A stretch of DNA of 36,055 bases, from the IMG/VR virus record IMGVR_UViG_3300045988_129084, one strand, 5' to 3'. The notes below the pieces were generated by a model. It saw only the letters and a list, made by a program, of their open reading frames with translations. It had not been told where the DNA came from and did not search any database. This document shows, piece after piece, positions 3,890 through 24,046 of the stretch. Each line of letters starts with the position of its first letter. Position 1 is the stretch's first letter. Origin of the DNA: a virus. A program made the translations under genes and the position numbers.

Positions 3890-3896
3890 AACAACA

Positions 3897-5117: not shown

Positions 5118-5135
5118 TAACGCGGAGGGCCTACC

Positions 5136-7642: not shown

Positions 7643-7644
7643 CG

Positions 7645-9945
7645 ATGGCGGCCAAAACATTAAAAGGCATTACCGTTGAAATCAACGGCAAAACAACCGG
7701 CCTTGCAAACGCCTTAAAGGACGTTACAAAGACTTCCACGGCCCTGTCCAGCAACTTGAAGGAAATCAACAAGGCGCTGAAACTGGATCCCGGAAACACC
7801 GAACTGCTGAACGAAAAGCAGAAAATTCTTTCCGAAAGCGTAGCCGCCGCGCGCAAGGAATTGGAAACCCTGGAAGGCGTACAGAAACAGGTTTCGGACC
7901 AGTACGCCAACGGCGACATTGACCGGGGCGCGTGGCTGGAATATCAAAACAAACTGCAAAAAGCCAAGCAGCACCTTGAAGACCTGGAAAAAGCGCAGAA
8001 AGACTTCGGCACCGCCGCCGCCCAGGCCATAAAGGAAGCCGGCGCGAAAATCGAGGAATACGGCGGCAAGGTAGAGGGAGTCGGGAAAAAGCTCATGCCC
8101 GTTTCCGGCGTGGCCGCAGCGACGGGCACAGCGCTTACAAAAATGGCCTGGGACTTTGAAGACGGGATGGCCAAAGTTTCGACCATTGCAGACACCACGG
8201 AAGTGCCTATTTCCGACCTTGAAAAGCAAATCAAGCAGTTGTCCGACAGCACCGGCGTGGAAGCCGGAGAAATTGCGGAGAACGTATACAACGCAATCAG
8301 CGCCGGGCAAAAGACCGGCGACGCTGTAAACTTTGTATCGAAGGCAACAGACCTTGCGAGGGCCGGCTTTGCAGAGACAGGCGACGCGCTGGACGTTCTG
8401 TCCACGATTATGAACGCCTACGGGCTGGAAGCATCGGAAGTCGACAAGGTTTCTAACGACCTTATCATGACGCAAAACCTGGGCAAAACCACGGTTGCCG
8501 AACTTTCCAGCAGCATGGGGAAGGTTATCCCGACAGCGAAAAGCACAGGCGTAAACCTGGACGAATTGTGCGGAGCCTATGCGGTAATGACTTCTAACGG
8601 CGTTGCTACCGCTGAAACCACAACATACTTGAACAGTATGCTTAACGAATTGGGGAAGCAAGGCTCTACTGCGGCGAATGCGTTTGCGGCAGGAACGGAA
8701 CACATCAAAGAAGGCGGCCTGACAATGGCCGAAGCGATGGAACAGGGCTGGTCTTTGTTCGACGTTCTAAGCGTTCTTGATGAACAGGCCGCCGCAAGCG
8801 GCACAAGCATAAACAATATGTTTTCCAGTGCCGAAGCCGGAAAAGCCGCGAACATTTTGTGGGACAATGCCGAAAAATTCAACGGCGCAGTTGAAGAAAT
8901 TCAAGGGAGCACAACGGCCACAAGCGACGCGCTGGGAAACCTGGAAACCAGCGGCCACAAAACCGAGGTTGCAATAAACCAAATCAAAAACGCGGGGCTT
9001 GAATTCGGGCAAACAATCAGCGCAATGCTGGCCCCCGCCCTTCAAAAGCTGGCCGAATATATCCGAAACGCGAAGGAAAAGCTGGACGGAATGGACGACG
9101 GCCAAAAGCAAGCCATTGTTACCATTGGCCTGATTGTGGCTGCAATCGGTCCGGCCCTTGTGATTATCGGCAAGGTAATTACAGCCGTGGGAACCATTAC
9201 CACGGGCGTGGGCAGCCTTGTGGGCTTTGTGGGCGGCACGGTTGTGCCACTTATTACAGGCACCGTAATGCCCGCGCTGTCGGGCCTGTGGGCGCTTATG
9301 CTGGCAAATCCTATATCTATTGTTATTGCAGCTATTGCGGCCATTGTGGCCGCGTTTGTGCTGCTGTGGAACAAGTGCGAAGGTTTCCGCAATTTTTGGA
9401 TTAACCTTTTTTCTTCTGTCAAAAGCACGGTTGTGGACGCGAAAAACAACGTTCTTTCCACCTTCGACGGAATCAAAAACGGAATTTCGAGCCGCATTGA
9501 GGGCGCGAAAAACAGCGTACACAATGCCATTGAAAACATTAAAGGCTTTTTCAATTTTAGCTGGTCCTTGCCGCACCTGCAACTTCCGCACCCGTATATT
9601 TCCGGGCGCTTTTCCCTAAACCCGCCCAGTGTGCCCAGCTTCGGTATTAACTGGTACAAAGAAGGCGGCATTTTGTCCGGCGCGCAGATTTTCGGGCAGA
9701 TGGGGGGCAATCTTTTGGGCGGTGGCGAAGCGGGCCAGGAAGCCGTTCTGCCGTTGTCCGATTTTTACAGCCATCTGGACGGGATTCTGTCGCGGTACAT
9801 GAACAACACGGCCAGCGGCCTGGTTATCCAGCTGAACATTGAACGCTTCGAGAACGGCGGATCCGAAGACATTAAGGAAATCGCCCGCCGCGTGGGCATT
9901 GAGGTGCGCCGCGAAGTGGAAAAGAAACGGGGGGCTTTTGAGTGA
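7645..9945 (+). CDS. Tail tape measure protein
   Basis: 766 aa from ATG 7645 (track start 7558 trimmed). Coiled-coil N-terminus, a TP901-type TMP core, and a hydrophobic Gly/Ala/Ile/Val segment. It is the longest gene after the chaperones. Confidence 0.9.
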
Positions 9946-10655
9946 TTAACACGTTCTATCTGGACGCGGAAAGCGCCGAAGCCTACGGCCTTATAATGCT
10001 GGCCCCGCCTGACCACGTTGTCGCGGAAAGGGACATCGAGCGCAAGGAAGTGCCCGGACGTTCGGGGGACGTGATTATCGACAACGGCAGGTATAAAAAC
10101 GTAACTGTAAAATACAGCTGCGCGATTCTGCCGGAAGACGGCGTCCCCTACCGCACTACGGTTGCGCGGGCTGTCCAGTTTTTGAAATCCGGCCCCGCGT
10201 ACAAACAGCTGCGCAACACCTACGACCCAGACCGCTTCCGCGAAGCACGGGTGCAGGGCAGCTATTCGGTGGAAAGCATTGTCGAACAAGCTGGAAAGCT
10301 GGAAATTGCATTTGACTGCAAACCGCAGTTTTGGCTTGCGTCCGGCCTTGAAACGCTGGACCTGCGCGAAGGCGCAACCCTGCTGAACCCGACCAACCAA
10401 CCAGCGAAGCCCATTATTACCGTTTACGGCACCGGCCCCGGCGTTCTGACTGTGGGCGGAACACAATGCCGTATTTTGAAACTGGCGGACTATATAACGC
10501 TTGACTGTGAAAACGAAACGGCCCGGCGGGAAACCGCGAACAAAAACAGCGCTGTTTCCGTGGCCGAATTTCCCACGCTGGAAGGCAGCGTGGGCGTTTC
10601 ATGGGAAGGCGGAATTGACCGCGTAGAAATAGAACCGAGGTGGTGGACCCTGTGA
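9942..10655 (+). CDS. Distal tail protein (Dit)
   Basis: 237 aa, GTGA overlap with the TMP stop. N-terminus [17 protein letters not shown]... resembles siphovirus tail-family (Dit) proteins. Confidence 0.8.
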
Positions 10656-13600
10656 AGCCGAGACTGTACCCCGAAAACGAAACCAACTTTGAAAGCAACG
10701 GCCTGGGGCCGCTGTCTGACGCGCTGGCCTGCACCATCGAGGAAAACCGAAACGGCGCATTTGAACTGTCGATGGAATACCCGGTCACGGGCGTGCTGTT
10801 CGACGAACTGAAACACGGCAGCATTATTTTTGCCCCACCGAACGACAGCAGCGAACCGCAACCCTTCCGCGTGTACGGTAAAAGCACCCCGCTTTCGGGC
10901 GTTGTGACCGTGCGCGCCAAACACATAAGTTACCAGCTGTCGCACATCCCCGTTTCGCCGTTTACGGCAGGCAGCTGCGCGGCGGCCCTGCAAGGGCTTA
11001 AAACCAACGCCGTGGAGCCGTGCCCCTTCGACTTCTGGACCGACAAGGAAACCGTTGCAACCTTCACCGTAAAGGAACCGGCGTCAGCGCGTTCCCTGCT
11101 GGGTGGCGTAGCCGGGTCGGTGCTGGACGTGTACGGCGGCGAATACGAATTTAACCGCTACACGGTGAAGCTGCACAAGGCACGCGGAACCGACAGCGGG
11201 GTGGTTATCGCCTACGGCAAAAACCTGGTTGACATCGACCAGGAAGAAAGCATCGAAAACACGATAACGGGGGTTTACCCCTATTACAAGGACACCGACG
11301 GCAACGTGCTGGAACTGCCGGAAAAAGTGGTTTCCAGCGCGTCGGCGCATAACTTCCCCTACCCGCGAACGGTCCCGCTGGACTGTTCGCAAGAGTGGCA
11401 GGAAACACCGAGCGTCGAACAGCTGCGCGCCTATGCTGCGGCTTATGTCACAAGGGAAGGCATAGGCGTGCCGGCTGTATCGCTGAAAGTGTCTTTTGTC
11501 CCCCTGTGGCAGACCGAGGAATACAAGGCCATTGCCCCGGCGGAACGCTTAAACCTGTGCGATATTGCAACAGTGCGCTTTGAAAAGCTGGGCGTAAATG
11601 CGCGGGCCAAGGTTGTGCAGACCGTTTACGACGTGCTGGCCGGGCGTTATGAAAGCATTACGCTGGGCGAAGCAAGCACTAATCTGGCGGACACCATCGT
11701 AGCCCAGGACAAGGCCATAAACGCGAAGGCAGACACCAGCGACCTTGAAGCCGCTGCGGCCAACGCTTCGGCCTGGATAACCGGCAACAAGGGAGGCTAT
11801 GTTGTTTTGCGGCGCAATGCCGACGGCCAGCCTTATGAACTGCTTATCATGGACAAGCCGACCATTGAGGAAGCAACGAAAGTGTGGCGCTTCAACAAGT
11901 CGGGCCTGGGTTATTCGTCAACGGGCTATAATGGCACCTACGGTCTGGCAATGACCCAGGACGGGCAAATCGTTGCCGACTACATCACAACCGGCACGCT
12001 GTCGGCCAATCTGCTGCGCGCGGGCGTGCTGCAAGACAAAACAGGGAAAGTTTTCAAGCTGGACCTGGACGCGGGCACACTGGACGCGAATTTCACAAGC
12101 CTGCAAGTTTCCGGCAAGACCCCGGAACAGATTGCGGCGGAACAGGCCAAGGAAGCCGCAGCAGCGGCAGAGAAGGCCGCCAAGGAGGCCGCAGCAGCAG
12201 ACTTGAAAGAATACCAGGCCGCCGTTGAAAAGACCGTGCAGGACTTGCAGGGCCAAATTGACGGCAATATTACAACCTGGTTTTACCCCTATGCACCGAC
12301 GGCAGAAAACAAACCAGCAAGCGACTGGACGACGGAAACGGAACGGGAAGCCCATGCGGGCGATCTGTTCTACAATACCGACCAGGCCAGCGGCAAAGCA
12401 TACCGCTGGGCCATTGTGGGCGACGTTTGGCAATGGCTGTTGCTGGAAGATACCGACGTCGCAAAAGCCCTTGCAAACGCCAAGACCGCCCAGGACACCG
12501 CCGACGGCAAGCGCCGCACCTTTATTTCCACGCCCGTGCCCCCGTATGACGTGGGCGACCTGTGGGCGCAGGGAAAGGATGGCGCACTGCTGGCCTGCAT
12601 CAAGAAAAAGACCGGCAGCCAACTGTATAGTGCCGACGACTGGACGGATGCGGCCAACTACACCAAAGCCGCCGAAGCAATGCTGAAGGACTACGCAGAC
12701 ACCGTAAACGAACAGCTGGAAGGACTGGGCAGACAGATTGACGGGAAAACGGAAACCTGGTTTTACCCCTACGACCCTACGGCAAAGAACGAACCCGCAA
12801 GCGGTTGGAAAACAGAGGAAGACCGCAAGGCCCACGAAGGCGATCTGTTCTACAACACCGACCCGGCCAGCGGGAAAGCATACCGCTGGGCAAAGGACGG
12901 CGACGCATGGGCCTGGGCGCTTCTGCAAGACGCGGACGTGTCCGCAGCCCTTGCAGCGGCCAAGCAGGCCAAGGACACCGCCGACGGCAAGCGCCGCACC
13001 TTCATTTCCACGCCCGTGCCCCCGTATGACGTGGGCGACCTGTGGACACAAGGCGACGCGGGCGAACTGCTGGTGTGTACAACTGCCAAGGCCAGCGGCG
13101 CAGCATTTGCCGCAGGCGACTGGGCAAGCGCGGCAGACTACACGGCGCAGGCCGCCGAAGCCGGGCGGAACCTGATTTCTAATTCGGCTTACATCGGCGT
13201 AACTTCGACGTATACAGGATTCGACTTTACAGGAAACCAGGTAAAAATAACACTGACCGACGGAAACAGCGCGCGCAACGTAACAAGGCGGCTGACCGAG
13301 TACGGAATCCAAAGCCTGCGAAACAGGAAAATAACGGTTTCCTATGACTACAAAATTACCGAAGCGATAACTTACGCAGAGAACTACAGCGGCACGCCTG
13401 GCGCCTTGGGCCGCCTTGAAATCACTTTCGCGGACGGAACAAAGCAGCACATAAGCGCACCGCGCAACGACTTCAAGGCCCTGGGAACGGCGGCAATGGA
13501 CGACTTCGCCCGCGTTACCGCAACCGCAACCGTGCTGGACAGGGAAGTAACGGCGGCTGTTTTCAAGGTATTTTTCCAAGGCGCAACCGGCGCAATCATC

Positions 13601-14212
13601 TACAAAAATCCGAAGGTTGAACTGGGCGGAATCGCAACCGCCTGGACCCCTGCCCCGGAAGACACCACCCTGGCCGCCACTGCCCCGGCGCTTACACAGC
13701 AGGAAGTTTTTAACCGGCTGACAAACAACGGGCAGCTGCAAGGGCTGTACATGAGTGACGGCAAGCTGTACATCAATGCGCAGTATATCGCTGCCGGAAG
13801 AATTGCCAGCGTTGACGGGAAAAGCTATTTTGACCTTAACACAGGAAATGCCGTGCTGCGCGGATCCTTTTCCACCCTTGAACGGACGAATTCGACGGGA
13901 ACATACCGCGTTTTCTTCGATTCGGGAAATATCGCTTGCCAAAAGAAGAACGGCGATAACTGGGACAGCATAGGCTTCCTGTCCTGGAACTACGGCGTAA
14001 GCCCCCCGGAAACCTGGATAAAAGCGTCGCGCGTTGACGTACTAAATTCTTTGGACACCCCTGCGGTATGGCTGAGTGGCACAGGATACGGAAAGGCTTT
14101 GTATGCAGAAGACGGGCAGCGAAAGTTGTACGTTGACAACATAAACGGCCGCAGCGTGCAGTGGTATTGGGATTCTGCAATTTCTAAATGGGTCCTTGGC
14201 GCAAACGCTTAA
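10652..14212 (+). CDS. Tail-associated lysin/tip protein (Tal; prophage-endopeptidase-tail N-domain) with a long C-terminal extension
   Basis: ~1186 aa. GTG 10652 has RBS GAGGTGG and a GTGA overlap with the Dit stop; GTG 10640 is an alternative start. N-terminus ...LYPENETNFESNGLGPLSDALACTIEENRNGAFELSMEYP is typical of siphovirus Tal. Confidence 0.85.
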   Translation: MKPRLYPENETNFESNGLGPLSDALACTIEENRNGAFELSMEYPVTGVLFDELKHGSIIFAPPNDSSEPQPFRVYGKSTPLSGVVTVRAKHISYQLSHIPVSPFTAGSCAAALQGLKTNAVEPCPFDFWTDKETVATFTVKEPASARSLLGGVAGSVLDVYGGEYEFNRYTVKLHKARGTDSGVVIAYGKNLVDIDQEESIENTITGVYPYYKDTDGNVLELPEKVVSSASAHNFPYPRTVPLDCSQEWQETPSVEQLRAYAAAYVTREGIGVPAVSLKVSFVPLWQTEEYKAIAPAERLNLCDIATVRFEKLGVNARAKVVQTVYDVLAGRYESITLGEASTNLADTIVAQDKAINAKADTSDLEAAAANASAWITGNKGGYVVLRRNADGQPYELLIMDKPTIEEATKVWRFNKSGLGYSSTGYNGTYGLAMTQDGQIVADYITTGTLSANLLRAGVLQDKTGKVFKLDLDAGTLDANFTSLQVSGKTPEQIAAEQAKEAAAAAEKAAKEAAAADLKEYQAAVEKTVQDLQGQIDGNITTWFYPYAPTAENKPASDWTTETEREAHAGDLFYNTDQASGKAYRWAIVGDVWQWLLLEDTDVAKALANAKTAQDTADGKRRTFISTPVPPYDVGDLWAQGKDGALLACIKKKTGSQLYSADDWTDAANYTKAAEAMLKDYADTVNEQLEGLGRQIDGKTETWFYPYDPTAKNEPASGWKTEEDRKAHEGDLFYNTDPASGKAYRWAKDGDAWAWALLQDADVSAALAAAKQAKDTADGKRRTFISTPVPPYDVGDLWTQGDAGELLVCTTAKASGAAFAAGDWASAADYTAQAAEAGRNLISNSAYIGVTSTYTGFDFTGNQVKITLTDGNSARNVTRRLTEYGIQSLRNRKITVSYDYKITEAITYAENYSGTPGALGRLEITFADGTKQHISAPRNDFKALGTAAMDDFARVTATATVLDREVTAAVFKVFFQGATGAIIYKNPKVELGGIATAWTPAPEDTTLAATAPALTQQEVFNRLTNNGQLQGLYMSDGKLYINAQYIAAGRIASVDGKSYFDLNTGNAVLRGSFSTLERTNSTGTYRVFFDSGNIACQKKNGDNWDSIGFLSWNYGVSPPETWIKASRVDVLNSLDTPAVWLSGTGYGKALYAEDGQRKLYVDNINGRSVQWYWDSAISKWVLGANA
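12203..13162 (+). repeat. In-frame tandem duplication inside Tal: two 480-nt (160-aa) units, 12203..12682 and 12683..13162
   Basis: Register offset is exactly 480 nt (cctggttttacccct at 12276 and 12756). The stretch gacaccgccgacggcaagcgccgcacctt-atttccacgcccgtgcccccgtatgacgtgggcgacctgtgg occurs at 12493 and 12973 with one mismatch. Confidence 0.9.
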
Positions 14213-14229
14213 AAGGGGGTGAGAAAAAA

Positions 14230-14937
14230 ATGGAAGAACAGCAGATCCTTCAAAAAATCAACCTTGATTTTGCGCGGGCCGGAATCCCGCCGCGCGTCTT
14301 TGCAAAGCAGGGCGACAATAATATGCGCGTTGTGGCCGTGTCACTGTATAACGACGGGAAAGCCTATAAGGTCCCCGGCGGCTATGCCGTGAACGTGAGC
14401 GCCAAAAAGCCGGACGGCAAAAGCGTGTACAACCCCGCCACGGAAGTGGCCGGGAACGTCGCCTATATCACCCTTACCCAGCAAATGCTTGCCGTGCGCG
14501 GCATTGTCTCCGCCGAAATTGAAGTCGTGCGCGGGGCTGACACGCTGAAAACGGAAAAGTGGCAAATCAACGTTGAAGAATGCGCGAACCCGGAAAACCA
14601 GGTTGAAAGCACTGACGAATACAAGACCATACAGCAGCTTCTTGCCGAAACCGAAGCGGCCAAGACTGCGGCGGCTGAGTCTGCAAGCGCTGCGGCCAAG
14701 AGTGCGCAGGAAGCCAAAGACGCGGCGGCACAGGCGGCAGCGGACGCGAAAAAGGTTATTGACGAAGGCGTAAACGACAAACTGCAACAAATGCATAAAA
14801 TTCAAACCGACGTAACCGCCAAAGCCGACAAGGTAAGCACCGACGCGGCCAAAGTGGAAGGGTACGCCAAAGCTGCGCAATACCTTATCGGCTACAACAA
14901 AAAGAATATTTTAACCGTTTTCCTCTATGAGGAATAA
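14230..14937 (+). CDS. BppU-like baseplate upper protein (N-terminal BppU-type domain plus Ala-rich coiled coil)
   Basis: 235 aa from ATG 14230 (track start 14188 trimmed). N-terminus ...INLDFARAGIPPRVFAKQGDNNMRVVAVSLYNDGKAYKVP... resembles BppU_N. The A/E/K-rich helical stretch is typical of fibre stalks. Confidence 0.65.
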   Translation: MEEQQILQKINLDFARAGIPPRVFAKQGDNNMRVVAVSLYNDGKAYKVPGGYAVNVSAKKPDGKSVYNPATEVAGNVAYITLTQQMLAVRGIVSAEIEVVRGADTLKTEKWQINVEECANPENQVESTDEYKTIQQLLAETEAAKTAAAESASAAAKSAQEAKDAAAQAAADAKKVIDEGVNDKLQQMHKIQTDVTAKADKVSTDAAKVEGYAKAAQYLIGYNKKNILTVFLYEE

Positions 14938-14953
14938 CAGAAAGGACAGAACT

Positions 14954-16645
14954 ATGGGACTTACTGAATACGGGCACATTGCAACCGAGGAAACCCAGCT
15001 GCGCGTTGCCGACCTGCTGCAAGCAATCGCAGCGGGAAGCGCTGGCCCGGAATACACCGACGCGACCTTCAAGGCCCTGCTGGACGACACGAACACAACG
15101 GAGATTTTTTCCGCCTGGTGGCCGCTGTCCGCAGCATCGAACGACAGCAAATACAAGCGCCTGCTGCGCTTCTTTACCATGCTGCAAACCGACAAAACCT
15201 ACACCGTGAAATTTCCCAGCCCTGCCGTGTCCACAAACCCGGCGGGCACCCCGGCGGACGATCTGGCAGGAAAGAGCGCGGCAGCCTTGGCAACCGACAG
15301 CACAAACCCGGAAGACTGGGCGGCGGAAGACCGCATGACCTGGTATATTCGCGCCAACGCTGTGAGCCTGGCAGACGGAACTATGGACGTTCTTGCCATT
15401 GAGGGCGAAGAAGAATTTGACATCACCGGCACGCTGGCCCCTGTCTACACCTTCGCCCCTGCTCTGCTGCGCCGCGTTATCGACGACGGCAGCTACCTGT
15501 CGAAAAGCTGGCGCAGCACCTTGGCCGATGGCTTCACGCCCTACGCCGAAAACGTGGCACCGAATGGCAAGCGCCGCGCAATGACCTGGCACGCTACCTT
15601 CCCCGGCGGCTTGAACGCAAAGGGCGCACTTACCAGCGGCGCGGGCCTGCCTGTGGCGAACTTCAACAGCGCGGCCACGGGTCTGGCCCTGGCCCGCAAG
15701 CAAACTGCTTACGATTCTGTGTGGGGCGACTGTGACAGCCTGTATATGCTGGATATGTGGCAGCTGCGCCATTTCAACCTTGAAAATAGCCGCATTTTGG
15801 AAGGCTGCACCAGCTACAACCTGCAATATAAGGTTGCAGCCGCCGAAACCGGCGTGAAGCGTGTGCTGCTGACTGCTTCCCAGGCTTCGGGCTTCATTGT
15901 CGGCAGCACCGTTTCTGTGGGCGACAAGGGCAGCAACAGCAGCGTAGACCGTTACAATACATGGATGCGTGACATTGCCGACAGGGTAAAAGTTAAGAGC
16001 ATTGAAACCGTTACCGTCGGCGGCACCGACTATTCGGCGGTAAATTTGGACGTTGCGGACAGCTTCGACGTGCCCGAGACTGCCTATATCAGCTCTATGC
16101 CCTGGCACAGCGGCGCAACGGAAGCCCTGCCCGGCCATAGCGACGGCGCACCCGGCAGCCTGACGAACGGCAAATACCCGTGCCGTTGGGCTGGCGTTGA
16201 AATGCTGAACGGTGCCTACGTTATCGGCCTTGACCCGCTGTGGAACGTCACAACCGTGGACGGCGGCGTGACCTATACCGCTATGGCCTGCCGCGATTCG
16301 GAGAAAGAAGCCAGCAGCGTGACGGCCAACCATGTGAAAGTCGCAGAAAAGACCTTTACCAGCGTGAACGCCTGGAACTACGAACTTTCGATGCAGAACG
16401 ACAGCACCGAAAGCCTTCTGCCTGACAAGACCGGCGGCGGCGACACCGTGGGCATGAAGTCCGCGTTTTCTGTCAATGGCTCTGCGGGGGTCCGTTGCCC
16501 GTGGCGTTATGGCTCTTTGAGCCATGCTGGCGCTGCTGGCGCTGCCTGCGCGGCTGGCAACTTTTCCCCGGCGAGTTCGGACTGGCATGGCGTTCCCCGG
16601 CTTAAAGGATCGGGCAAAAAGCGGGGTGAATGGGCGGGCTTTTGA
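14954..16645 (+). CDS. DGR target protein: putative receptor-binding tail fibre/tip protein with a C-terminal variable region (C-type-lectin-fold type expected)
   Basis: 563 aa from ATG 14954 (RBS AAAGGA; track start 14927 trimmed). It is the last structural gene after Tal and the BppU-like gene. The VR occupies codons near the C-terminus (...SAFSVNGSAGVRCPWRYGSLSHAGAAGAACAAGNFSPASSDWHGVPR...). Confidence 0.85.
   Translation: MGLTEYGHIATEETQLRVADLLQAIAAGSAGPEYTDATFKALLDDTNTTEIFSAWWPLSAASNDSKYKRLLRFFTMLQTDKTYTVKFPSPAVSTNPAGTPADDLAGKSAAALATDSTNPEDWAAEDRMTWYIRANAVSLADGTMDVLAIEGEEEFDITGTLAPVYTFAPALLRRVIDDGSYLSKSWRSTLADGFTPYAENVAPNGKRRAMTWHATFPGGLNAKGALTSGAGLPVANFNSAATGLALARKQTAYDSVWGDCDSLYMLDMWQLRHFNLENSRILEGCTSYNLQYKVAAAETGVKRVLLTASQASGFIVGSTVSVGDKGSNSSVDRYNTWMRDIADRVKVKSIETVTVGGTDYSAVNLDVADSFDVPETAYISSMPWHSGATEALPGHSDGAPGSLTNGKYPCRWAGVEMLNGAYVIGLDPLWNVTTVDGGVTYTAMACRDSEKEASSVTANHVKVAEKTFTSVNAWNYELSMQNDSTESLLPDKTGGGDTVGMKSAFSVNGSAGVRCPWRYGSLSHAGAAGAACAAGNFSPASSDWHGVPRLKGSGKKRGEWAGF
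16459..16600 (+). repeat. DGR variable region (VR)
   Basis: Aligns without gaps to 16743..16884 (offset 284). There are 14 mismatches, 13 of them opposite TR adenines. Homology ends abruptly after ggcgttccccgg. Confidence 0.92.
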
Positions 16646-16653
16646 CCGCCCAG

Positions 16654-16675
16654 AGGGGCAGCAGGCCCCTTTTTG
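16654..16675 (+). terminator. Rho-independent terminator after the DGR target gene
   Basis: AGGGGC-agcag-GCCCCT stem followed by TTTTT. Confidence 0.6.
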
Positions 16676-16687
16676 AATAGAAAACAA

Positions 16688-16725
16688 ACCACCGGCCTTC
16701 CACGAACGGAAGGGCGGTGGTTTTT
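16688..16725 (+). terminator. Strong rho-independent terminator between VR and TR
   Basis: ACCACCGGCCTTCC-acgaac-GGAAGGGCGGTGGT gives a 13 bp stem with one G.G mismatch, followed by TTTTT. Confidence 0.75.
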
Positions 16726-16742
16726 GGGTAATACGGCGCTGG

Positions 16743-16884
16743 GTCCGCGTTTTATGTCAATGGCTCTGCGGGGGTCCGTTGCCCGTGGCGTTATGGCAAT
16801 TTGAACAATGCTGGCATTGCTGGCGCTGCCTGCGCGAATGGCAACAATTCCCCGGCGAATTCGAACTGGAATGGCGTTCCCCGG
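16743..16884 (+). repeat. DGR template repeat (TR)
   Basis: Non-coding copy of the VR. It contains 23 adenines, all at codon positions 1 or 2 when read in the VR frame. Twenty of them sit in ten AAY codons. Confidence 0.92.
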
Positions 16885-17095
16885 TCTACTGAAATTTTAA
16901 GGCACAGCCCAAAGCTGTGCCGCATTGCGTTGTGTTATCCGTGCCGAAAGCTAAAATCATGTGAGACCGACACCGCGCCCGGTTTCGGGCGGGGCTATGC
17001 GCTGCGGGCGCATGGCGGGGCAAGTAGTAGAACACCGAGACCCTGCACGAAGGGCCACGGCAACCGAAAGCCCTTGCACATCAGTAAGTATTTTT
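16885..17095 (+). ncRNA. DGR spacer region (structured RNA between TR and RT, part of the TR-RNA)
   Basis: No credible ORF. There are several GC-rich hairpins: 16901-16921 (GGCACAGC/GCTGTGCC), 16976-16991 (CGCCCG/CGGGCG) and 16994-17016 (9 bp with one G.U). Confidence 0.55.
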
Positions 17096-18376
17096 ATGAA
17101 ACAAAGATATAAAGAACTATCCCATAACCTGTGTTTGCGCGCGGTTTTGGAGTGCTTCGAGAAGAAATGGCACCGCCAAGATTTTGTCGCGGTTGCCGAA
17201 AAGTACGGGGGTGTTTCCAATGTGGAGATAAGGCGCGACGAAGCGCAAAGTGCAGTTGTCAAAAAGCTGGAAGCTGCGGACGGAATAGCGCTGGAACTTG
17301 AGCAGCGAATTCTTGACCTTGAAGACGGAGACCCGGAAGCGCTGGACCTTGACCCGGTAACGGAACGGCCCCGCATTGACGGCATAAGCATGAAATGCCG
17401 AAATGTTGCAAATTGTTGTGTATTTCATCAATGCTTCGGCCATCTTGCTTTCCTGGGCCTGGAACCGCTTCTGCGAGCCAGAATTCTGCCCTACCAACAC
17501 GCAAGCATACCGCACCGAGGGCAAAGCGGGTGCAGGCGGCAGGTGCAGCGCTTCCTTCGCCGTAAGGCGCTGGGAATCAAGTACGCCCGCAAGCTGGACA
17601 TTCGCCACGCCTACGAGAACACCAAAGCGGGCGTAATCATGGGAATTTTGAAAAAAGAAATTCCCGCCGCAAAGTGGCTGCTGCTGTTGGTGGAAGCCCT
17701 GCTGAATATGTCGCCGCGCGGTTGCCTTATTATAGGCGGCTACTTGGACGCATGGCTGTTTAACCTGGTTATGTCCTACGTTTTGCGGTATATGCTGTCG
17801 CTTGAAAAGGTGCGCAGGGGCACGCGGCAACGCCTTGTTGTGGCACTGGTGGCCTATGCGGACGACGTTGCCATAATGGGCCGAAGGCTGGCAGACCTGC
17901 GCAGCGCGGCAAGGACGGCAGCAAAATGGACGCTGAAAACCTTCGGCCTGACATTCAAACCGGGCGGCGACGAAGTGGCCTTTTTGAGCATCGAAGAAGA
18001 ACACCGCCGCAGGCACCTGACGCGGCCAGCGGCGCGCGGCTGCCCTGGGCTTGATATTGTGGGCTTCGTTATCCGCCGAACCTATACAACCGTGCGCCGG
18101 GCCATTTTCCGGCTGGCGCGGCGGCAATACCTGCGGGCCGGGCGCGAAGTTGACAAAAGCGGCACGGTGCCGCTTTTTCGCGCGTACAAGCTGGCGAGTT
18201 ACTACGGATATTTTACGCAGACGAATTCCCGGAAATGCAGCACAACGCTGCGGACCGAGAAAATAAAACCGCTTGCCTGCCAAGTAATCGGGTGGGCAAC
18301 ACGACAGAAAGAGAGGATACACAATGAAAAATGCAAGCATTATGCTGGACCACCAGCCGCCTGCCGTTGTCTTTGA
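17096..18376 (+). CDS. DGR reverse transcriptase (divergent)
   Basis: 426 aa from ATG 17096 (track start 16961 trimmed; no obvious SD). RT motifs seen: ...KLDIRHAYEN (motif A), IIGGYLDAWLFNLVMSYV (motif B region), LVAYADDVAIMG (YADD, motif C), LKTFGLTFKP, LDIVGFVI. Confidence 0.88.
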   Translation: MKQRYKELSHNLCLRAVLECFEKKWHRQDFVAVAEKYGGVSNVEIRRDEAQSAVVKKLEAADGIALELEQRILDLEDGDPEALDLDPVTERPRIDGISMKCRNVANCCVFHQCFGHLAFLGLEPLLRARILPYQHASIPHRGQSGCRRQVQRFLRRKALGIKYARKLDIRHAYENTKAGVIMGILKKEIPAAKWLLLLVEALLNMSPRGCLIIGGYLDAWLFNLVMSYVLRYMLSLEKVRRGTRQRLVVALVAYADDVAIMGRRLADLRSAARTAAKWTLKTFGLTFKPGGDEVAFLSIEEEHRRRHLTRPAARGCPGLDIVGFVIRRTYTTVRRAIFRLARRQYLRAGREVDKSGTVPLFRAYKLASYYGYFTQTNSRKCSTTLRTEKIKPLACQVIGWATRQKERIHNEKCKHYAGPPAACRCL

Positions 18377-18677
18377 GCGCCTGCCGGACGGCGACGCCGT
18401 TGTCCGGCTGTACGACAACATCAAGGACGCGGCAGACGTTGCACAGCCCGGCGAGACTGACCCGGAACAGGAACCGGGCAGCGCGTACCTGGCCGACGAA
18501 GTTATGTTTATGCTTCCCGCCACCCGCGCCGCAGAGGAAACCCAGGAAAGCATTGCAGCGGATTTTTCCGGCTGGTGGAAGTACGGCGAAGCATGGGAAG
18601 GCCAGGAGAAAGCCCCGACTGTCGAGGAGCGCCTGGCCGCAATGGAAGATTTTATGGTCGCAATCATGGAGGGCTAA
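18324..18677 (+). CDS. Hypothetical acidic protein (XkdW-position protein)
   Basis: 117 aa, overlaps the RT 3' end by 53 nt. It precedes the XkdX-like gene, as in PBSX-type tail/lysis junctions. A start at ATG 18342 is also possible. Confidence 0.55.
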   Translation: MKNASIMLDHQPPAVVFERLPDGDAVVRLYDNIKDAADVAQPGETDPEQEPGSAYLADEVMFMLPATRAAEETQESIAADFSGWWKYGEAWEGQEKAPTVEERLAAMEDFMVAIMEG

Positions 18678-18682
18678 CACAC

Positions 18683-18844
18683 ATGAGCAAATACTATACC
18701 ACCGCGCGGCTGCTGTATCGGCTGCACAAAATCACCGCCGACCAGGTGTGGGCGTACACCGAAAGCGACCCGCCCAAAATCACCGAAGACGAAGCGCTGG
18801 CAATCTGCGGCCCGCGCGCCAAAGATGAAACCGCCGGAAGCTGA
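18683..18844 (+). CDS. XkdX-family small phage protein
   Basis: 53 aa from ATG 18683 (RBS GGAGGG; track start 18575 trimmed). MSKYYTTARLLYRLHKITADQVWAYTE...ITEDEALAICG resembles the XkdX family. Confidence 0.7.
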   Translation: MSKYYTTARLLYRLHKITADQVWAYTESDPPKITEDEALAICGPRAKDETAGS

Positions 18845-19004
18845 AAGCTGGCTGCATGAAACGGCGGCCCTGCTGATTGACGCAATGGACCTTGCAGTAA
18901 AGCAGCAGCGGCGGCTTGATCTTCACGCGGACAGCAAGACAAAAGACGAATACACGGCCCTGCTGGCGCGTTATGAGCGCTTCACGCAGGCCGCCGACAA
19001 ATAG
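18825..19004 (+). CDS. Hypothetical small protein (59 aa, below the ORF-track cutoff)
   Basis: Hand translation of ATG 18825...TAG 19002-19004 gives MKPPEAESWLHETAALLIDAMDLAVKQQRRLDLHADSKTKDEYTALLARYERFTQAADK. It fills the gap between the XkdX-like gene and the lysin gene. Confidence 0.5.
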   Translation: MKPPEAESWLHETAALLIDAMDLAVKQQRRLDLHADSKTKDEYTALLARYERFTQAADK

Positions 19005-19017
19005 GAAGGTGGAACAA

Positions 19018-19815
19018 ATGAAAATTTACGGCATCGACGTTTCGCACCACCAGGGCGCTATTGACTGGGCCAAGACCGCTTCGGAGCTGCGCCGCGTGAA
19101 CGGCGGAACGTCGCCCGGCTTTGCAATTCTTCGCGTGGGATATTCTGCGCGGCACGGCAAAGGCGGCTTGTACATGGACGGCCAATTCCTTAACAACCTG
19201 GCCGCTTGCGAGAAGTACGGCGTCCCCGTGGGCGTTTACTTCTACTGTTACGATACCAGCCCCGCCGCCGCAAGAATCACCGCCCAGCAGGTTGTAAAAA
19301 TGCTGTCGGGCCACAAATTCGCGTACCCCATTTACTACGACGTGGAGTACGAAAAATATAACTTGAACTGCGGCAAGGCGCAGAACACGGCCATTATTAA
19401 GGCTGCGCTGGAAACCCTGGAAGCGGGCGGCTATTATGCCGCCGTGTACTGTTCCCGCGACTTCTTCATCAACCAAACCAATCTGCCGGGCCTTGCCAAC
19501 TTCGACAAGTGGGAAGCTGCTTACACCAAAACCGACACTGCCACGGTGCAGAATGGCTTGTGGCAGTATTCCAGCAAGAACGCGCTGGGAATTGCAGGCT
19601 TCGGCAATAGCCTGGACTGCGACGTCTGCTACCGCGACTATCCCGCCATTATGGAGAAGAACGGACTGAACGGCTACACCAAAACCGAGCAGGCCGCCCA
19701 GCCGAAAGCAACCGAATACATGGTGACGGCTGGCCCCATGAGCGCGGGCGACAAAAACACCATTAAGGCGCAGGCCGAAGCCCTGGGCCTTCCCGTAACC
19801 GTAAAGGAGTGTTAA
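19018..19815 (+). CDS. Endolysin, glycoside hydrolase family 25 muramidase
   Basis: 265 aa from ATG 19018 (RBS AGGAAGGTGG; track start 18916 trimmed). N-terminus MKIYGIDVSHHQGAIDWAK is the GH25 signature. Confidence 0.88.
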   Translation: MKIYGIDVSHHQGAIDWAKTASELRRVNGGTSPGFAILRVGYSARHGKGGLYMDGQFLNNLAACEKYGVPVGVYFYCYDTSPAAARITAQQVVKMLSGHKFAYPIYYDVEYEKYNLNCGKAQNTAIIKAALETLEAGGYYAAVYCSRDFFINQTNLPGLANFDKWEAAYTKTDTATVQNGLWQYSSKNALGIAGFGNSLDCDVCYRDYPAIMEKNGLNGYTKTEQAAQPKATEYMVTAGPMSAGDKNTIKAQAEALGLPVTVKEC

Positions 19816-19818: not shown

Positions 19819-20451
19819 ATGGATATGCTTTTCTCTAACTACTTGCACACGCTGACCGGCAACCTTTTTGTGCGCCTGGTGCTTTGGTGCGTTGTGCTGG
19901 ACACCGCCCTGGGCTGCCTGCGCGCCGTCAAATATCGGAAGTGGAATTCCAGCGTGGGCATTGACGGCGGCATTCGTAAGGTTGCCATGGTCCTGTCCGT
20001 GCTGTTTCTTGCCCTTGTGGACGATATGGTGGGCGTGGACGTGCTGGCCTGGGCAAACGCCGATGCAAGGGCGGTGCTTACGTCAATGGGCATTAAAAGC
20101 CTGGGCCTTGCAGAATTCTTCTGCGTTGTGTATGTACTCTATGAAGCTACCAGCATTATGAAGAATATGCTGCTTTGTGGCCTTCCCTTGCCCGCTGGCC
20201 TGCGCGAAAAGGTGGCCAAATTTCTGGACACAATGACCGACGAAACAGCAATCAATATGCAGGCGGAAATTTCGGGCACAAACAAAGGGCACACCGTAAC
20301 CGGGCACCTGGACACGGCACAGCTTGAAACCATGAGCCTGGAAGCCTTGCACAAACTGGCCGACGGCCTGGAAGTCGAATACACCGAAGACACGCCCCTC
20401 AAACAGTTGGCGGAAAAAATTGCCGCCGTTGAGGTAACAACCGAGATTTAA
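19819..20451 (+). CDS. Holin (phage_holin_4/TIGR01593-like) with a long soluble C-terminal extension
   Basis: 210 aa with RBS AAAGGAG. Several hydrophobic helices lie in the first ~140 aa (LVLWCVVLDTALGCLRAVKYRKWNSSVGIDGGIRKVAMVLSVLFLALV). It is adjacent to the lysin. Confidence 0.8.
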   Translation: MDMLFSNYLHTLTGNLFVRLVLWCVVLDTALGCLRAVKYRKWNSSVGIDGGIRKVAMVLSVLFLALVDDMVGVDVLAWANADARAVLTSMGIKSLGLAEFFCVVYVLYEATSIMKNMLLCGLPLPAGLREKVAKFLDTMTDETAINMQAEISGTNKGHTVTGHLDTAQLETMSLEALHKLADGLEVEYTEDTPLKQLAEKIAAVEVTTEI

Positions 20452-20528: not shown

Positions 20529-22106
20529 CTACCAGCGGGAACCCCTGGCGACGCAAATTCCAAACGTACCACAAAGGAAAAAGACCAAAGCAGCAGGGTT
20601 TGTATTTGCGGTATTTGGTGCCCCTAACGTGTCCAAATACGAACCCGGCGGGACTTCCGAAGGCGTGGCGGCCTGGGCGGCTTCATAAGGAACAACGGCG
20701 GCCCCGGCACTGTCCACATTAAAAATAATCTTCAGATAATCGTCATACACAAAGACGGAATGAACAAGCGCCCCGAACACCTGGCGGCGGAAGTCTGGAT
20801 CCGTCCTATCACCCCGGCGGAACCCGTCAAGCCAGCAGGCCACGGCTTCGGCCTTGACGACAAGCGCGGCCTGCACCTTCGCGCGGTCTATCTGCTGGCG
20901 CAGGGCCGTGCGGTCCGCTTCGGCTTCTTCCAGTAATTCCTTCGTGGTTTCTGTTATAATTCCCTGTGCAATGGCATTGCCTATATTTTTTAGTCGGCGC
21001 TGCACTTCTTCCATCTGGGCGTTTAAGCTGGCGAGAAGTGCGGCGCTGTCGCTGTTTTCGGCGCACCGTCTTTCCACTTCGGTGGAAATATAGGCTATAT
21101 TTTCATCGGTGAGAATATCAAGCGCAGACCGCAGCACGGCTTCCTCTATCAAATCAAGGCGCACGTTCTTCTTTTTGCAGGTTTTCGCCCGGCGATTATT
21201 GCAAATGTAGTAATAATGCCGCGCCCCCGTGTGGCTGGTGCCTGCCGTGCCCGTCATGGGCGCACCGCACAGGCCGCAGAACAGCTTCCCGCTTAACAGG
21301 TACGGCACTTCGGCCTTGTATGCGCCGGGCCGGTGCCTGTTCGCGGAAAGCCGCCGCTGCACGGTAAAAAATAATTCATCTTCAATAATACGCGGGCAGC
21401 CGCCTTCTATTCGCACTTCCCCGCCGTAGCTGTACACGCCTATATATTTTTCGTTGCGCAAAATGGAATTGAAGCTGCTGCGGGTGTAAAGCGTGCCGTT
21501 TGTTGTGCGGTGGCCTTCTTCGTTCAGCTGGGCGGCAAGCTGGCCCATGGCCTTGCCGCTGGCGTACCATTCAAAAATCCGGCGCACCAATTCAGCCCCC
21601 ACGGGGTCTATTTGCCAGCGCTTGTTCGGGCCTGCCCGATAGCCAAGCGGTGCGCGCCCGACGATCTGGCAATGCTGGGCGGCCTTATTCATGCCCCGGC
21701 TGACATCTTCGGACAGCTTTGCGCTGAAATATTCGGCAACGGTTTCAATCATGCCTTGCGTAATTATGCCGGCACTGCCTTCCGGTATGTATTCGGTAAC
21801 GCTGATTAAATGCACCCCGGCGGCTTCCAGCTGCTTGCGATACAGGGCGCTTTCGGCACGGTTGCGGAAGAAGCGGTCATACCGCCATACAAGAACGCAA
21901 TCAACCACGCCCGTGGCCGCGTCGCGCATGAGCCGCCGGAAGTCGGCGCGGTTTTCCGTCTTGCCGCTGCGCGCCCGGTCTGCGTACTGGCCGACTACGG
22001 TTATATTGTGCTTGTCGGCGTATTCCTGGCAAATATCCCGCTGCCCTTCTATGCTAAGCTCTTGCTGCTTATGGCTGGAAAATCGGCAGTAAATAAAAGC
22101 CCGCAT
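20529..22106 (-). CDS. int: Large serine recombinase (integrase)
   Basis: 525 aa. N-terminus MRAFIYCRFSSHKQQELSIEGQ (resolvase catalytic Ser domain), a recombinase domain, a Cys-containing zinc-ribbon region (CGLCGAPM...YYICNNRRAKTCKKK) and a coiled coil. Confidence 0.92.
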   Translation of the reverse strand: MRAFIYCRFSSHKQQELSIEGQRDICQEYADKHNITVVGQYADRARSGKTENRADFRRLMRDAATGVVDCVLVWRYDRFFRNRAESALYRKQLEAAGVHLISVTEYIPEGSAGIITQGMIETVAEYFSAKLSEDVSRGMNKAAQHCQIVGRAPLGYRAGPNKRWQIDPVGAELVRRIFEWYASGKAMGQLAAQLNEEGHRTTNGTLYTRSSFNSILRNEKYIGVYSYGGEVRIEGGCPRIIEDELFFTVQRRLSANRHRPGAYKAEVPYLLSGKLFCGLCGAPMTGTAGTSHTGARHYYYICNNRRAKTCKKKNVRLDLIEEAVLRSALDILTDENIAYISTEVERRCAENSDSAALLASLNAQMEEVQRRLKNIGNAIAQGIITETTKELLEEAEADRTALRQQIDRAKVQAALVVKAEAVACWLDGFRRGDRTDPDFRRQVFGALVHSVFVYDDYLKIIFNVDSAGAAVVPYEAAQAATPSEVPPGSYLDTLGAPNTANTNPAALVFFLCGTFGICVARGSRW

Positions 22107-22117
22107 ACAATCACCCT

Positions 22118-23092
22118 TTATTCGTCTAACATATCATAAAAAACATTTTCCGGGATAATAGACAAGTCTGCGCCGCCCAAAATATACTTTTCGGCTTTTT
22201 TATGTTTGGAACTCTTGCCGTCTTTGATTGAGGAACACAGGTCATTATTTCCCAAAACAAGGAAGTTGGTTTTCTTTGTAACGCTGTCGGCATTGATTCC
22301 GCCGAGGTCCGCAACCAACTGCATGGCTTCCTTGCGCGTCATTTTTTCCAGCGCACCGGTGAACACCACAACGCGGCCATACAGGGGGCTATCCGTCCGA
22401 AGCGCTTCGGGGTTTCCGACAATATCCGAAGCGCGCAAATTTCTTTTGCCGTGGGCGCGCTGCAGAACATCTTCCAAATTGTTATCGCGCGCGTACTGAA
22501 TCATATATTCATAACACAGCGCAGCGGTTTCCGCGTCCGCTTCGGCACGGTGGGCGCAATCCTGGGAAACACCGCACTTTTTGGCAACAGTAGCAAGTTT
22601 GTGATTCGGAAGATCGGGGAAGACACGCCGGGAAAGGCGGCAAGTGTCTATATAATCATTTCCGAACTTCGGAAGCCCGCAGGAACCGCAAGCGTCATAT
22701 ATAAAATTCACGTCAAAAGCGACATTGTGCCCGACAAGAACATCGGATCCGACAAAATCCAAAAAGGCCGGGAAAACCTTTTCCGCAGAAGGGGCAGTTT
22801 CCAGCATTGCGGGAGAAATACCGGTCAATGCGGTAATGTATTCATCGACCTGGGACATATCGGACGGGCAGATGAGAGAGGAAAAGCGGTCAACGATCTG
22901 GCCGCCGCGCACGCGAAGGGCAGAAACTTCAATTATTTCGTTGTACACAGGAGAAAGGCCGGTGGTTTCAACGTCAACGCTGACATAATCAGATAGAAGC
23001 GCAAGAATGCTTGCGCCGCGTCCCGGGCGCGCGGTTTTTCGCCCGTTGAGAATTTCAACCTTACCAGCAGAAAAAACAATTTCAATAGCCAT
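22118..23092 (-). CDS. DEDDh 3'-5' exonuclease (DnaQ/epsilon-like) fused to a C-terminal BRCT domain
   Basis: 324 aa from ATG 23092 (RBS GGAGG; track start 23164 trimmed). Exo motifs [17 protein letters not shown] and HRAEADAE. C-terminal [27 protein letters not shown]...FLVLG is BRCT-like. Confidence 0.8.
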
Positions 23093-23135
23093 GATACTTG
23101 CCTCCACACACCCGCCGCCCGGCGGGCTTATTTTT

Positions 23136-23498
23136 TTATGCCGGGGAAATAGACGATTTTGCATTTTCTTGAAGCGTGGACTGATACTCGAAATCCAAAC
23201 TATTCAAAATACGAGCCTGGGCCATGATATCTAAAGCATGGAATTTTAGAAGAAGTTCAGAGTCTTCAATAGATAGTTGCGAGGGAGCAATATTTTCAAA
23301 TCGAGAAGGAACGCCTAAGAGATGGTCGGTAGAAACATGAAACAAATCAGCTATACGGCATAACGTGTCAAAATTTGGTTCTCGGCGACCGCTTTCCCAT
23401 AATCCAACAGCGGATTGGGAAACGCCAAGAATATCAGCAAGTTTGTACTGCGATAGACCATTTTTTTCACGAAGCTTCTTCAATTCAATCCTAAACAT
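23136..23498 (-). CDS. XRE-family HTH repressor (CI-like)
   Basis: 120 aa from ATG 23498 (RBS AAGGTGG; GTG 23510 is an alternative). [30 protein letters not shown]. It is divergent from a cro-like gene. Confidence 0.85.
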
Positions 23499-23530
23499 AG
23501 AAAGCCCCACCTTCGTGTCGTTTTATTTAT

Positions 23531-23559
23531 ATAATAATTGCAGAAAGTAATAAAATCAA
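23531..23559 (-). promoter_or_regulatory. Candidate sigma-70 promoter for the repressor/lysogeny operon
   Basis: On the minus strand, TTGATT-N17-TATTAT lies ~30 nt upstream of the repressor RBS. Confidence 0.45.
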
Positions 23560-23587
23560 TACATAGGCAAAAATATTACATAACGTA

Positions 23588-23616
23588 TTGACAATTTCAC
23601 TCAGCCGTTGTATTAT
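23588..23616 (+). promoter_or_regulatory. Candidate sigma-70 early (lytic) promoter for the cro-like operon
   Basis: TTGACA (23588-23593), a 17-nt spacer, then TATTAT (23611-23616), ~38 nt upstream of ATG 23654. Confidence 0.6.
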
Positions 23617-23653
23617 GATTGAAGTTAGTAATCAAAGGGGATGACAAGGAGAA

Positions 23654-23848
23654 ATGATCGCAGTTAAGGAATTAAGGGAAAAATCCGGAATGACGCAGGC
23701 ACAGCTTGCCGAGAAGATGGGAACATCACAGGGAGCTGTCGCGCTTTGGGAAACTGGCGCAAGAATGCCGCGCGCCGACAAGCTGCCGAAACTGGCCGAA
23801 GTTCTGGGGTGCAGCGTTACAGACCTTTTCAACACCGAAAGCGCGTGA
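23654..23848 (+). CDS. Cro-like XRE-family HTH regulator
   Basis: 64 aa. HTH MTQAQLAEKMGTSQGAVALWETGARMP. It is the first gene of the rightward early operon. Confidence 0.85.
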   Translation: MIAVKELREKSGMTQAQLAEKMGTSQGAVALWETGARMPRADKLPKLAEVLGCSVTDLFNTESA

Positions 23849-23858
23849 GGTTGAAAGT

Positions 23859-24020: not shown

Positions 24021-24046
24021 AAGCAGAAAGGCGAAACTTTCACACA

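Follow-up and report, generated by a model that had tools for sequence, protein, structure and literature searches.

An active, Avd-less diversity-generating retroelement that diversifies a putative receptor-binding protein in a phage of gut Clostridia

Can a phage rewrite the end of its own receptor-binding protein gene by reverse transcription without the accessory protein Avd, and, if so, what takes the place of Avd? The question is raised by a 36,055-nucleotide (nt) stretch of viral DNA, IMG/VR record IMGVR_UViG_3300045988_129084 (called the window when the whole stretch is meant), in which a pair of similar repeats at the end of the tail genes is followed by a reverse transcriptase (RT) gene. 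The original prediction held that these parts form a diversity-generating retroelement (DGR), in which a template repeat (TR) is copied, with changes at its adenines, into a variable repeat (VR) of a target gene. Our analysis supports that prediction through adenine-specific differences, hypervariability confined to adenines, a DGR-type RT, a VR at the C terminus of the target, and a hairpin after the VR. We are highly confident that the window holds an active, Avd-less DGR of a temperate, siphovirus-type phage of gut Clostridia and that it diversifies a putative receptor-binding protein.

The repeats themselves carry the first part of the evidence. The window contains a single 142-nt direct repeat, formed by the VR (16459-16600, plus strand) and the TR (16743-16884, plus strand), which align without gaps at an offset of 284 and are 90% identical. 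Recomputing the alignment returned exactly the 14 mismatches that had been listed before, of which 13 fall at TR adenines and the remaining one is T16817->C; given 23 adenines among 142 TR positions, the hypergeometric probability of at least 13 of 14 is 1.7e-11. The odd T16817->C shares its codon with a mutated adenine (ATT->GCT). Outside both ends of the repeat, identity drops to chance at once, so the sharp end of homology that had been described after a GC-rich stretch is real: it lies at 16600, and the 3' end of the repeat is the GC-rich GGCGTTCCCCGG. A degenerate pattern made from the TR, with N at each adenine, has two matches in the window, where 0 are expected by chance, and neither this pattern nor a BLAST search with the TR found a third repeat copy or a second VR in the window.

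The coding frame fits the repeats closely. The VR occupies codons 502 to 549 of the 563-codon target open reading frame (ORF) at 14954-16645, placing it at the C terminus of the last tail gene, as first proposed. All 14 mismatches are at codon position 1 or 2 of this frame, and the TR codons that are changed in the window's VR comprise nine AAY, one TAT, and one ATT. Read in the frame of the target, the TR has 10 AAY, 2 TAT, and 1 ATT codons and not one adenine at a third codon position. Only positions 1 and 2 of these 13 codons are randomized, which means that no stop codon can arise, and about 3.7e13 protein variants are accessible.

The second part of the evidence comes from natural relatives of the phage. 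IMG/VR was scanned with the degenerate TR pattern and, in addition, for contigs encoding a 99%-identical RT. This recovered 11 contigs of the same phage, with flanks 94 to 100% identical to those of the window. The VR is different in each of the 11 near-identical contigs, while the TR, in 11 of 12 copies, does not vary at all (100% identity), even though the flanking DNA diverges by 1 to 3%. Compared with the TR, the 11 VR copies show 134 differences; all but one of them (133) lie at TR adenines, and that one is the T>C of the window. Every one of the 23 TR adenines varies in at least one genome, and the spectrum of substitutions comes close to random, with A>G at 49, A>T at 45, and A>C at 39. 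Although the pattern search fixed the non-adenine positions, each contig was also caught through its own invariant TR, and so the search could not have hidden non-adenine changes in a VR; only one contig gave a single match, and that contig ends within its VR. Moreover, the first 27 nt of the repeat, which were free of the pattern constraint, likewise vary only at adenines. The RT is intact, with the motif YADD, in all the near-identical contigs. Since each of 11 genomes has a different VR, the same TR, and an intact RT, the variants record repeated, recent diversification by the YADD enzyme. Judged from these differences between assemblies, the DGR is active in nature, and VR polymorphism is confined to adenine-templated sites, the outcome that the original prediction had proposed to look for in reads.

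One TR copy stands apart. In IMGVR_UViG_3300045988_055331, the TR at 1614-1755 (minus strand) carries four substitutions that are the same as those in its own VR, and this deviant copy arose either when assembly joined the two repeats into a chimera or by VR-to-TR conversion.

The third part of the evidence is the RT. A 426-amino-acid RT is encoded intact at 17096-18376 (plus strand), after the TR, and matches the RT family phrog_1423 at E 8e-41; its motif 4, IGGYLDAW, is encoded at 17732-17755 and its YADD at 17855-17866, just as a YADD enzyme had been placed here before. YADD replaces the YMDD found in most of the RT clade. Public gene calls (P0001, 459 amino acids) begin the RT at an ATG at 16997 and read across a structured spacer RNA, whereas the family alignment puts the start at a conserved MKQRY at 17096, and 16997-17095 is conserved as structured RNA and not as protein. 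As a single-sequence query against the PDB, the RT found nothing. A profile of 40 RT homologs, however, has as its best PDB match 8ub7_A, the sequence of the BPP-1 enzyme bRT, at E 5e-11, with entries for R2 and group II/retron-type RTs appearing only at E >= 0.095. By hhalign, the RT clade matches BPP-1 brt with 97.1% probability over 238 columns spanning fingers, palm, and thumb. The only NCBIfam match, to the group II RT/maturase model TIGR04416 (E 3.7e-6), stays at 26 bits, under the cutoff of 300 bits; the defense RT models of PADLOC give weak generic matches of <=24.6 bits, and a search of Rfam returned no intron RNA or retron msr/msd match. These profile comparisons support placing the RT with DGR RTs and not with RTs from group II introns, retrons, abortive infection (Abi), or defense systems, in keeping with the original prediction, which would have been undone by a robust grouping with the latter classes. 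The near-invariant [I/V/L]G of motif 4 is kept, including the isoleucine equivalent to bRT I181, a residue that tunes adenine mutagenesis (PMC7826257). Two long ORFs run antisense to the main genes, one of 600 amino acids opposite the target (14885-16687, minus strand) and one of 516 amino acids opposite the RT (17117-18667, minus strand); both are probably artifacts of a GC-rich coding strand.

What, then, of Avd? The order of the cassette is target/VR, TR, and RT, with no Avd, and the 142 nt between VR and TR are too short for an avd gene. Among 110 window ORFs of 85 to 200 amino acids on both strands, none has a Pfam match to Avd (PF05635) or HRDC, and phmmer with BPP-1 Avd gave nothing below E = 1. 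An Avd-like domain inside the RT was also considered and rejected (hhalign of the RT clade against Avd, within 0.1 to 0.3%).

The same layout recurs widely. In GTDB representative genomes, the RT clade is found in prophages of Faecalibacterium, Subdoligranulum, Oscillospiraceae, Fusicatenibacter, Hominifimenecus, Bulleidia, and unclassified Clostridia. Twenty-six genome loci, together with other contigs of the clade, have the arrangement VR-TR-RT with 13 to 20 mismatches, nearly all at TR adenines. In all loci with enough flank, the VR lies at the 3' end of a target homolog and is followed by a TR of 141 to 160 nt, a spacer of 187 to 255 nt, and the RT, and this layout is invariant across about 40 related cassettes in prophages of gut Clostridia. 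Two distant cassettes with RTs only about 25% identical, in the uncultured gut phages MT836575 and MT835477 (84.7 kb), have it too. The four-part module of target/VR, TR, RT, and a small acidic ORF spans 1167-4492 of MT835477.1 and 1667-5807 of MT836575.1; its presence in these, the former from a phage whose genome is over twice as long as the window, indicates that the module moves between very different phages.

The cassette had been called atypical in architecture, a description that does not hold for DGRs in general: besides being invariant in its relatives, the Avd-less layout has been published. DGRs without an accessory gene form Architecture A (A1 being TR-RT), 29% of the set of Wu et al. 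2018 (PMC5758913). The same authors described an avd-less Lineage 3, inferred an Avd-independent retrohoming mechanism for such elements, and reported a small acidic accessory protein, CH1, of 160 to 169 amino acids, which occurs only in Avd-less DGRs and is restricted to Bacteroides relatives (PMC5758913). According to Roux et al. 2021 (PMC8144416), tail-protein-targeting DGRs of gut phages dominate among viral DGR clades, and DGRs are documented in Faecalibacterium prophages (PMC11792537). The layout in the window is thus Architecture A1 in its core order, although the conserved small acidic ORF might be an accessory gene. A megablast search with 14000-19000 of the window found nothing among 50,697 phage records, none of 185,579 species-representative genomes contains the exact VR/TR pattern, and a target of the phrog_17147 type, the RT clade, and the small acidic ORF are in no isolated phage of the phage collection.

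The small acidic ORF (18324-18677, plus strand) encodes 117 amino acids (isoelectric point, 4.05), with an overlap of 53 nt at the RT stop codon. Every related cassette (about 40 loci) has a homolog, with a family size of 88 to 156 amino acids, and the homologs in the two distant cassettes are recognized by hhalign at 97.7% and 90.3%. The overlap with the RT end is kept in nearly all loci; in L037 and L042, the ORF instead sits between target and TR, which is the avd position in BPP-1. Within the 50,697 phage records, it matches a single one, which is the one with a close RT. The target family co-occurs with it in exactly the same loci, and, consequently, synteny cannot show whether the ORF belongs with the RT or with the target.

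Identity of the small acidic protein with Avd was rejected (hhalign, 0.1%), as was similarity to BPP-1 bbp4 (hhalign, 0.2%) and membership in an XkdW-like or other Pfam family, for which nothing at E <= 1 rose beyond noise. PADLOC gave no match. The structural model (predicted local distance difference test score [pLDDT], 80) has a beta sheet and C-terminal helices, and its fold search against the PDB returned no significant match; similarities to single-stranded DNA-binding (SSB)/OB-like folds, at E >= 0.25 and probability <= 0.25, are not evidence. In BPP-1 (NC_005357), bbp4 (82 amino acids; 1527-1775, minus strand) overlaps the brt stop codon too. A further ORF of about 53 amino acids follows the small acidic ORF at about 18683-18844 (plus strand), with coordinates inferred from a close relative, and ORFs of 44 to 73 amino acids are found in more distant loci.

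Two explanations for the small acidic ORF are about equally likely, each with a chance somewhat below even. First, it could be a DGR accessory factor that replaces Avd and acts with the RT and a structured RNA. Its presence in all of the roughly 40 cassettes, including those with a RT about 25% identical and that of the 84.7-kb phage, argues for this, as do its near-constant overlap with the RT stop, its avd position in L037 and L042, and the pairing of its sole phage-record match with a close RT. The window also lacks Avd and HRDC, and CH1 sets a precedent for a small, acidic protein found only in Avd-less DGRs (PMC5758913). Nevertheless, the target family marks the same loci, the protein is acidic whereas Avd is basic and binds nucleic acid, and no fold or family match points to nucleic acid binding.

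Second, the ORF could encode a chaperone, an assembly factor, or a structural partner of the target, with the TR and RT merely lying between the two genes. Small assembly genes often follow tail fiber genes, this one always co-occurs with the target family, and it directly follows the target gene in L037 and L042. However, it is translationally coupled to the RT in nearly all loci, downstream of terminator-like hairpins, which fits poorly with the amounts needed of a structural protein, and it has no similarity to known tail assembly families.

The DNA around VR and TR is rich in conserved structure. At the end of the VR, a candidate target recognition sequence resembling an initiation of mutagenic homing (IMH) site spans 16589-16631 (plus strand) and joins the VR end GGCGTTCCCCGG to a nearly invariant post-VR block, GGATCGGGCAAAAAGCGGGGTGAATGG. 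This block (..AAGCGGGGTGAAUGG), between VR and hairpin, consists of invariant DNA columns, including synonymous sites, in lineages whose RTs are 38 to 64% identical, and the block (also cited as the AAGCGGGGTGAATGG block) would, we infer, be a recognition element. RNA-guided recognition through pairing of the block with the spacer RNA was rejected, as energies were in the range of shuffled sequences and positions were inconsistent across 16 lineages.

The next element is a hairpin or cruciform, GGGCGG / CCGCCC, at 16632-16651 (plus strand), which starts 31 nt past the VR end. Its stem is 6 bp, and its 8-nt loop contains the target stop codon, TGA (16643-16645). Across the alignment, 93.7% of cells are paired, five of six pairs show compensatory changes, and covariation is 0.631 versus 0.168 in shuffled alignments (0/500). 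Phage DGR targets need a hairpin or cruciform 4 to 34 bp after the VR (Guo et al. 2011), a range into which the 31 nt fits. Two terminator-like hairpins, each followed by five T residues, lie between the target gene and the TR (16655-16674 and 16686-16725, plus strand). The first (AGAGGGG...CCCC) is conserved in relatives, and the predicted RNA fold of 16590-16745 has a free energy of -70.8 kcal/mol (z = -3.35).

A long-range RNA duplex encloses the TR. Its 5' strand, GGGUAAUACGGCGC (16726-16739, plus strand), ends 3 nt upstream of the TR, and its 3' strand, GCGUUGUGUUAUCC (16927-16940, plus strand), begins 42 nt after it; the two pair at 14 of 14 positions. Across 17 lineages, pairing holds in 94.1% of cells, compensatory changes (49 cells) affect 11 of the 14 pairs, and covariation is 0.695 versus 0.263 when shuffled (0/500), with all slid registers scoring far lower. 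The 3' block was taken as the best complement in a 30-nt window, and it coincides with a conserved block aligned by MAFFT. A comparable duplex, cPRT-Stop, has been described in 207 Avd-containing DGRs, with a mean length of 13 bp (Handa et al., bioRxiv 10.1101/2023.10.23.563531).

Between TR and RT lies a structured spacer RNA of 211 nt (16885-17095, plus strand), sequence blocks of which are conserved across 19 lineages. Its helices are H1, right after the TR (16901-16908/16914-16921), H3 (16976-16981/16986-16991), H4 (16994-17003/17007-17016), and Pa (17017-17021/17070-17074), which closes a 3' domain (17017-17074) that also holds Pb (17035-17037/17058-17060) and Pc (17041-17044/17051-17054). 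In this domain, the unpaired stretches AGUAGUA and CAACCGAAA are conserved. RNAalifold detected covariation in Pa (GC:9 / CG:8) and Pc, and folds of individual sequences yield the same spacer helices from different sequences. Raw MAFFT alignment with RNAalifold recovers a partial spacer structure in which H3 and H4 are out of register, these two coming from the per-sequence folds only. Neither the TR flanks nor the spacer match any Rfam family.

Together, the TR-enclosing duplex, the multihelix spacer RNA, and the post-VR hairpin with its invariant block are newly defined cis elements for this DGR family, and they suggest how the element may operate. An RNA spanning the TR and its flanks would fold so that the 14-bp duplex 16726-16739/16927-16940 encloses the TR and the multihelix spacer follows, a structure to which the covariation attests. 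The RT would then copy the TR into complementary DNA (cDNA), misincorporating at the 23 adenines; the mutational outcome is seen in the natural variants, and the enzymology is modeled on the homologous bRT. Finally, by analogy with BPP-1, the VR (16459-16600), located in the 3' end of the target gene, would be replaced by the cDNA; the GC-rich end of the VR, the invariant block behind it, and the hairpin at 16632-16651 would probably guide this homing. A more novel reading, which we hold to be less likely than not, is that the small acidic protein is a hitherto unrecognized DGR accessory factor; together with the structured RNA flanking the TR and an RT with a DA-type motif 4, it would stand in for Avd across a large clade of DGRs in phages of gut Clostridia, and mutagenic retrohoming would there follow a mechanistically distinct, Avd-independent route.

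The target that is being rewritten (14954-16645, plus strand) closes the tail module, encodes a 563-amino-acid putative receptor-binding or tail fiber protein, and matches phrog_17147 at E 5e-127. The original prediction had called it the distal tail protein, which needs correction: Dit is encoded at 9942-10655, and the target is the last tail gene, coming after Dit, a Tal-like tail protein (10640-14212), and a BppU_N protein (14188-14937). In Dit-Tal-BppU baseplates, as in siphophages of Gram-positive bacteria of the TP901-1 type, the last tail gene encodes the receptor-binding protein. Pfam gives no match for the target, and as a single-sequence query against the PDB it found nothing useful. 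Its AlphaFold2 model (pLDDT, 78.8) matches dozens of predicted phage tail fiber proteins in BFVD, at E values down to 2.8e-32. Gene position and this tail fiber-like fold make it a putative receptor-binding protein. The top PDB fold match of the model is TaqVP (5vf4), a marginal one (E 0.015; probability, 0.90; template modeling score, 0.23 to 0.32; 13% identity). A C-type lectin fold for the VR domain, which had been suggested as a check, is accordingly plausible but weakly supported: TaqVP does come first, but the VR segment of the model is poorly predicted.

Position and fold also suggest that the DGR likely serves to vary the ligand specificity of the receptor-binding protein, tracking or broadening host range. 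Alternatively, the diversified protein might bind another ligand, such as mucus or environmental glycans, rather than a host receptor, as adhesins and capsid decoration proteins have been proposed among the DGR targets of gut phages (PMC11792537; PMC10743442). We consider this unlikely, given that the gene occupies the receptor-binding protein slot of a Dit-Tal-BppU baseplate module and that its model matches tail fiber proteins.

Several observations weigh against an active DGR that diversifies a receptor-binding protein. The evidence for activity consists of differences between assemblies and not of reads from a single population. A scan around the TR found no sigma-70 promoter, and two terminator-like hairpins precede the TR. 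The VR segment of the target model (residues 520 to 545) has a pLDDT of < 50, and the target has no sequence similarity to Mtd. The RVT_1 (Pfam) score of the RT is 19.3 bits, under the threshold of 29.6. Motif 4, moreover, is without the signature SQ: IGGYLDAW, with DA in place of SQ, is found throughout the RT clade. The motif [I/V/L]GxxxSQ occurs in about 90% of DGR RTs and is not absolutely necessary (PMC3521204); the listed variants of SQ are SP, SH, NQ, PA, AQ, and VQ, and DA is not among them (PMC3521204).

Some of these observations could be read as signs of a decayed, inactive relic whose VR/TR differences are old, namely, the between-assembly nature of the evidence, the one non-adenine difference (T16817>C), and a YADD where the clade usually has YMDD. 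Yet 11 genomes with 94 to 100% identical flanks each have a VR of their own beside an identical TR and an intact YADD enzyme, and we regard a relic as very improbable. As for an RT of another class (group II intron, retron, Abi, or defense) beside an ordinary duplication, which the weak RVT_1 score, the sole NCBIfam match (E 3.7e-6), and the missing SQ might favor, it is next to inconceivable when group II is at 26 bits against a cutoff of 300, bRT is at E 5e-11 versus 0.095 for the next class with 97.1% by hhalign, Rfam shows no intron or retron RNA, PADLOC matches are weak, and, in a plain duplication, 133 of 134 changes would not fall on the adenines of a single copy.

With regard to transcription, two relatives, L030 and L027, have a TATAAT-like hexamer 5 to 10 nt upstream of the GGGU strand of the duplex, a hint that the TR RNA begins at this point; the window's sequence at the corresponding site forms a terminator-like hairpin instead.

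As a whole, the window is the genome of a temperate, siphovirus-type phage. Its structural genes start with the large terminase (183-1883), portal (1907-3070), protease (3074-3889), and major head protein (3897-5117) and continue through the tape measure protein (7558-9945) into the baseplate module described above. Downstream of the RT come two small ORFs, a GH25 endolysin (18916-19815), and a holin (19819-20451). The lysogeny and early region at 20529-25015, with its integrase and CI-like repressor, confirms a temperate lifestyle; it encodes, on the minus strand, a serine integrase (20529-22106), an exonuclease/polymerase-like protein (22118-23164), and a CI-like helix-turn-helix repressor (23136-23510) and, on the plus strand, a PAPS-reductase-like protein (23921-25015). 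A 138-amino-acid ORF at 34543-34959 (plus strand) closes the early region, ahead of an HNH endonuclease (35273-35614) and the terminase. It matches Sigma70_r4_2 at 24.9 bits, just under the Pfam threshold of 25.7. Its product is perhaps an activator of phage late genes; that could account for the absence of a sigma-70-type promoter near the TR. The host belongs to the gut Clostridia, probably to the Oscillospiraceae/Faecalibacterium group.

DGRs that target tail proteins of gut phages have already been cataloged by the thousand, and the value of this one is as a clean, clearly active Avd-less example. The element is abundant in human gut data, with 2,493 member sequences in the 90%-identity cluster of the window RT. 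Wu et al. 2018 raised the question of how Avd-less DGRs work (PMC5758913), and the cryo-electron microscopy study of the BPP-1 ribonucleoprotein examined RNA elements in Avd-containing DGRs only (bioRxiv 10.1101/2023.10.23.563531). Defined cis elements and one candidate protein now offer testable parts for reconstituting Avd-independent cDNA synthesis.

How does this DGR compare with those already known? Like the BPP-1 DGR (mtd-avd-TR-brt), it transfers adenine-specific changes from TR to VR in the C terminus of a tail receptor-binding protein, has a homologous RT and a VR whose 3' end is GC-rich and precedes a hairpin, and lies between tail genes and lysis genes. The RNA is alike as well, with a duplex pairing the upstream and downstream flanks of the TR (comparable to cPRT-Stop) and a stem-loop immediately after the TR. 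Unlike BPP-1, it has no Avd, and its TR comes directly after the VR, past two terminator-like hairpins. The RT has 426 amino acids versus 328 and a motif 4 of IGGYLDAW versus IGSLTSQL; the hairpin loop is 8 nt and contains a stop codon, in contrast to a 4-nt GRNA loop; the target has no detectable similarity to Mtd; and a conserved small acidic ORF overlaps the end of the RT. The closest RT of a cultured phage, that of FP_Epona, is only 25% identical.

Other known systems share some features with it. TaqVP of Thermus aquaticus (5vf4), the marginal match of the target model, is the variable protein of a DGR and adopts a C-type lectin fold. CH1 of Wu et al. (PMC5758913), compared here by description only, has 160 to 169 amino acids and occurs in Bacteroides relatives, whereas the small acidic proteins of this family have 88 to 156 and belong to phages of Clostridia. 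The DGRs of gut Firmicutes phages (PMC11792537; viral clades 1, 4, and 6, PMC8144416) resemble this one in residing in temperate phages of Clostridia and in targeting tail proteins, and their activity, too, was judged from VR variation among cognate genomes (PMC11792537; PMC8144416). In its genetic organization, the element resembles Architecture A1 and Lineage 3 (PMC5758913), with which it shares a TR-RT core, an upstream target, and the lack of avd, HRDC, or MSL genes.

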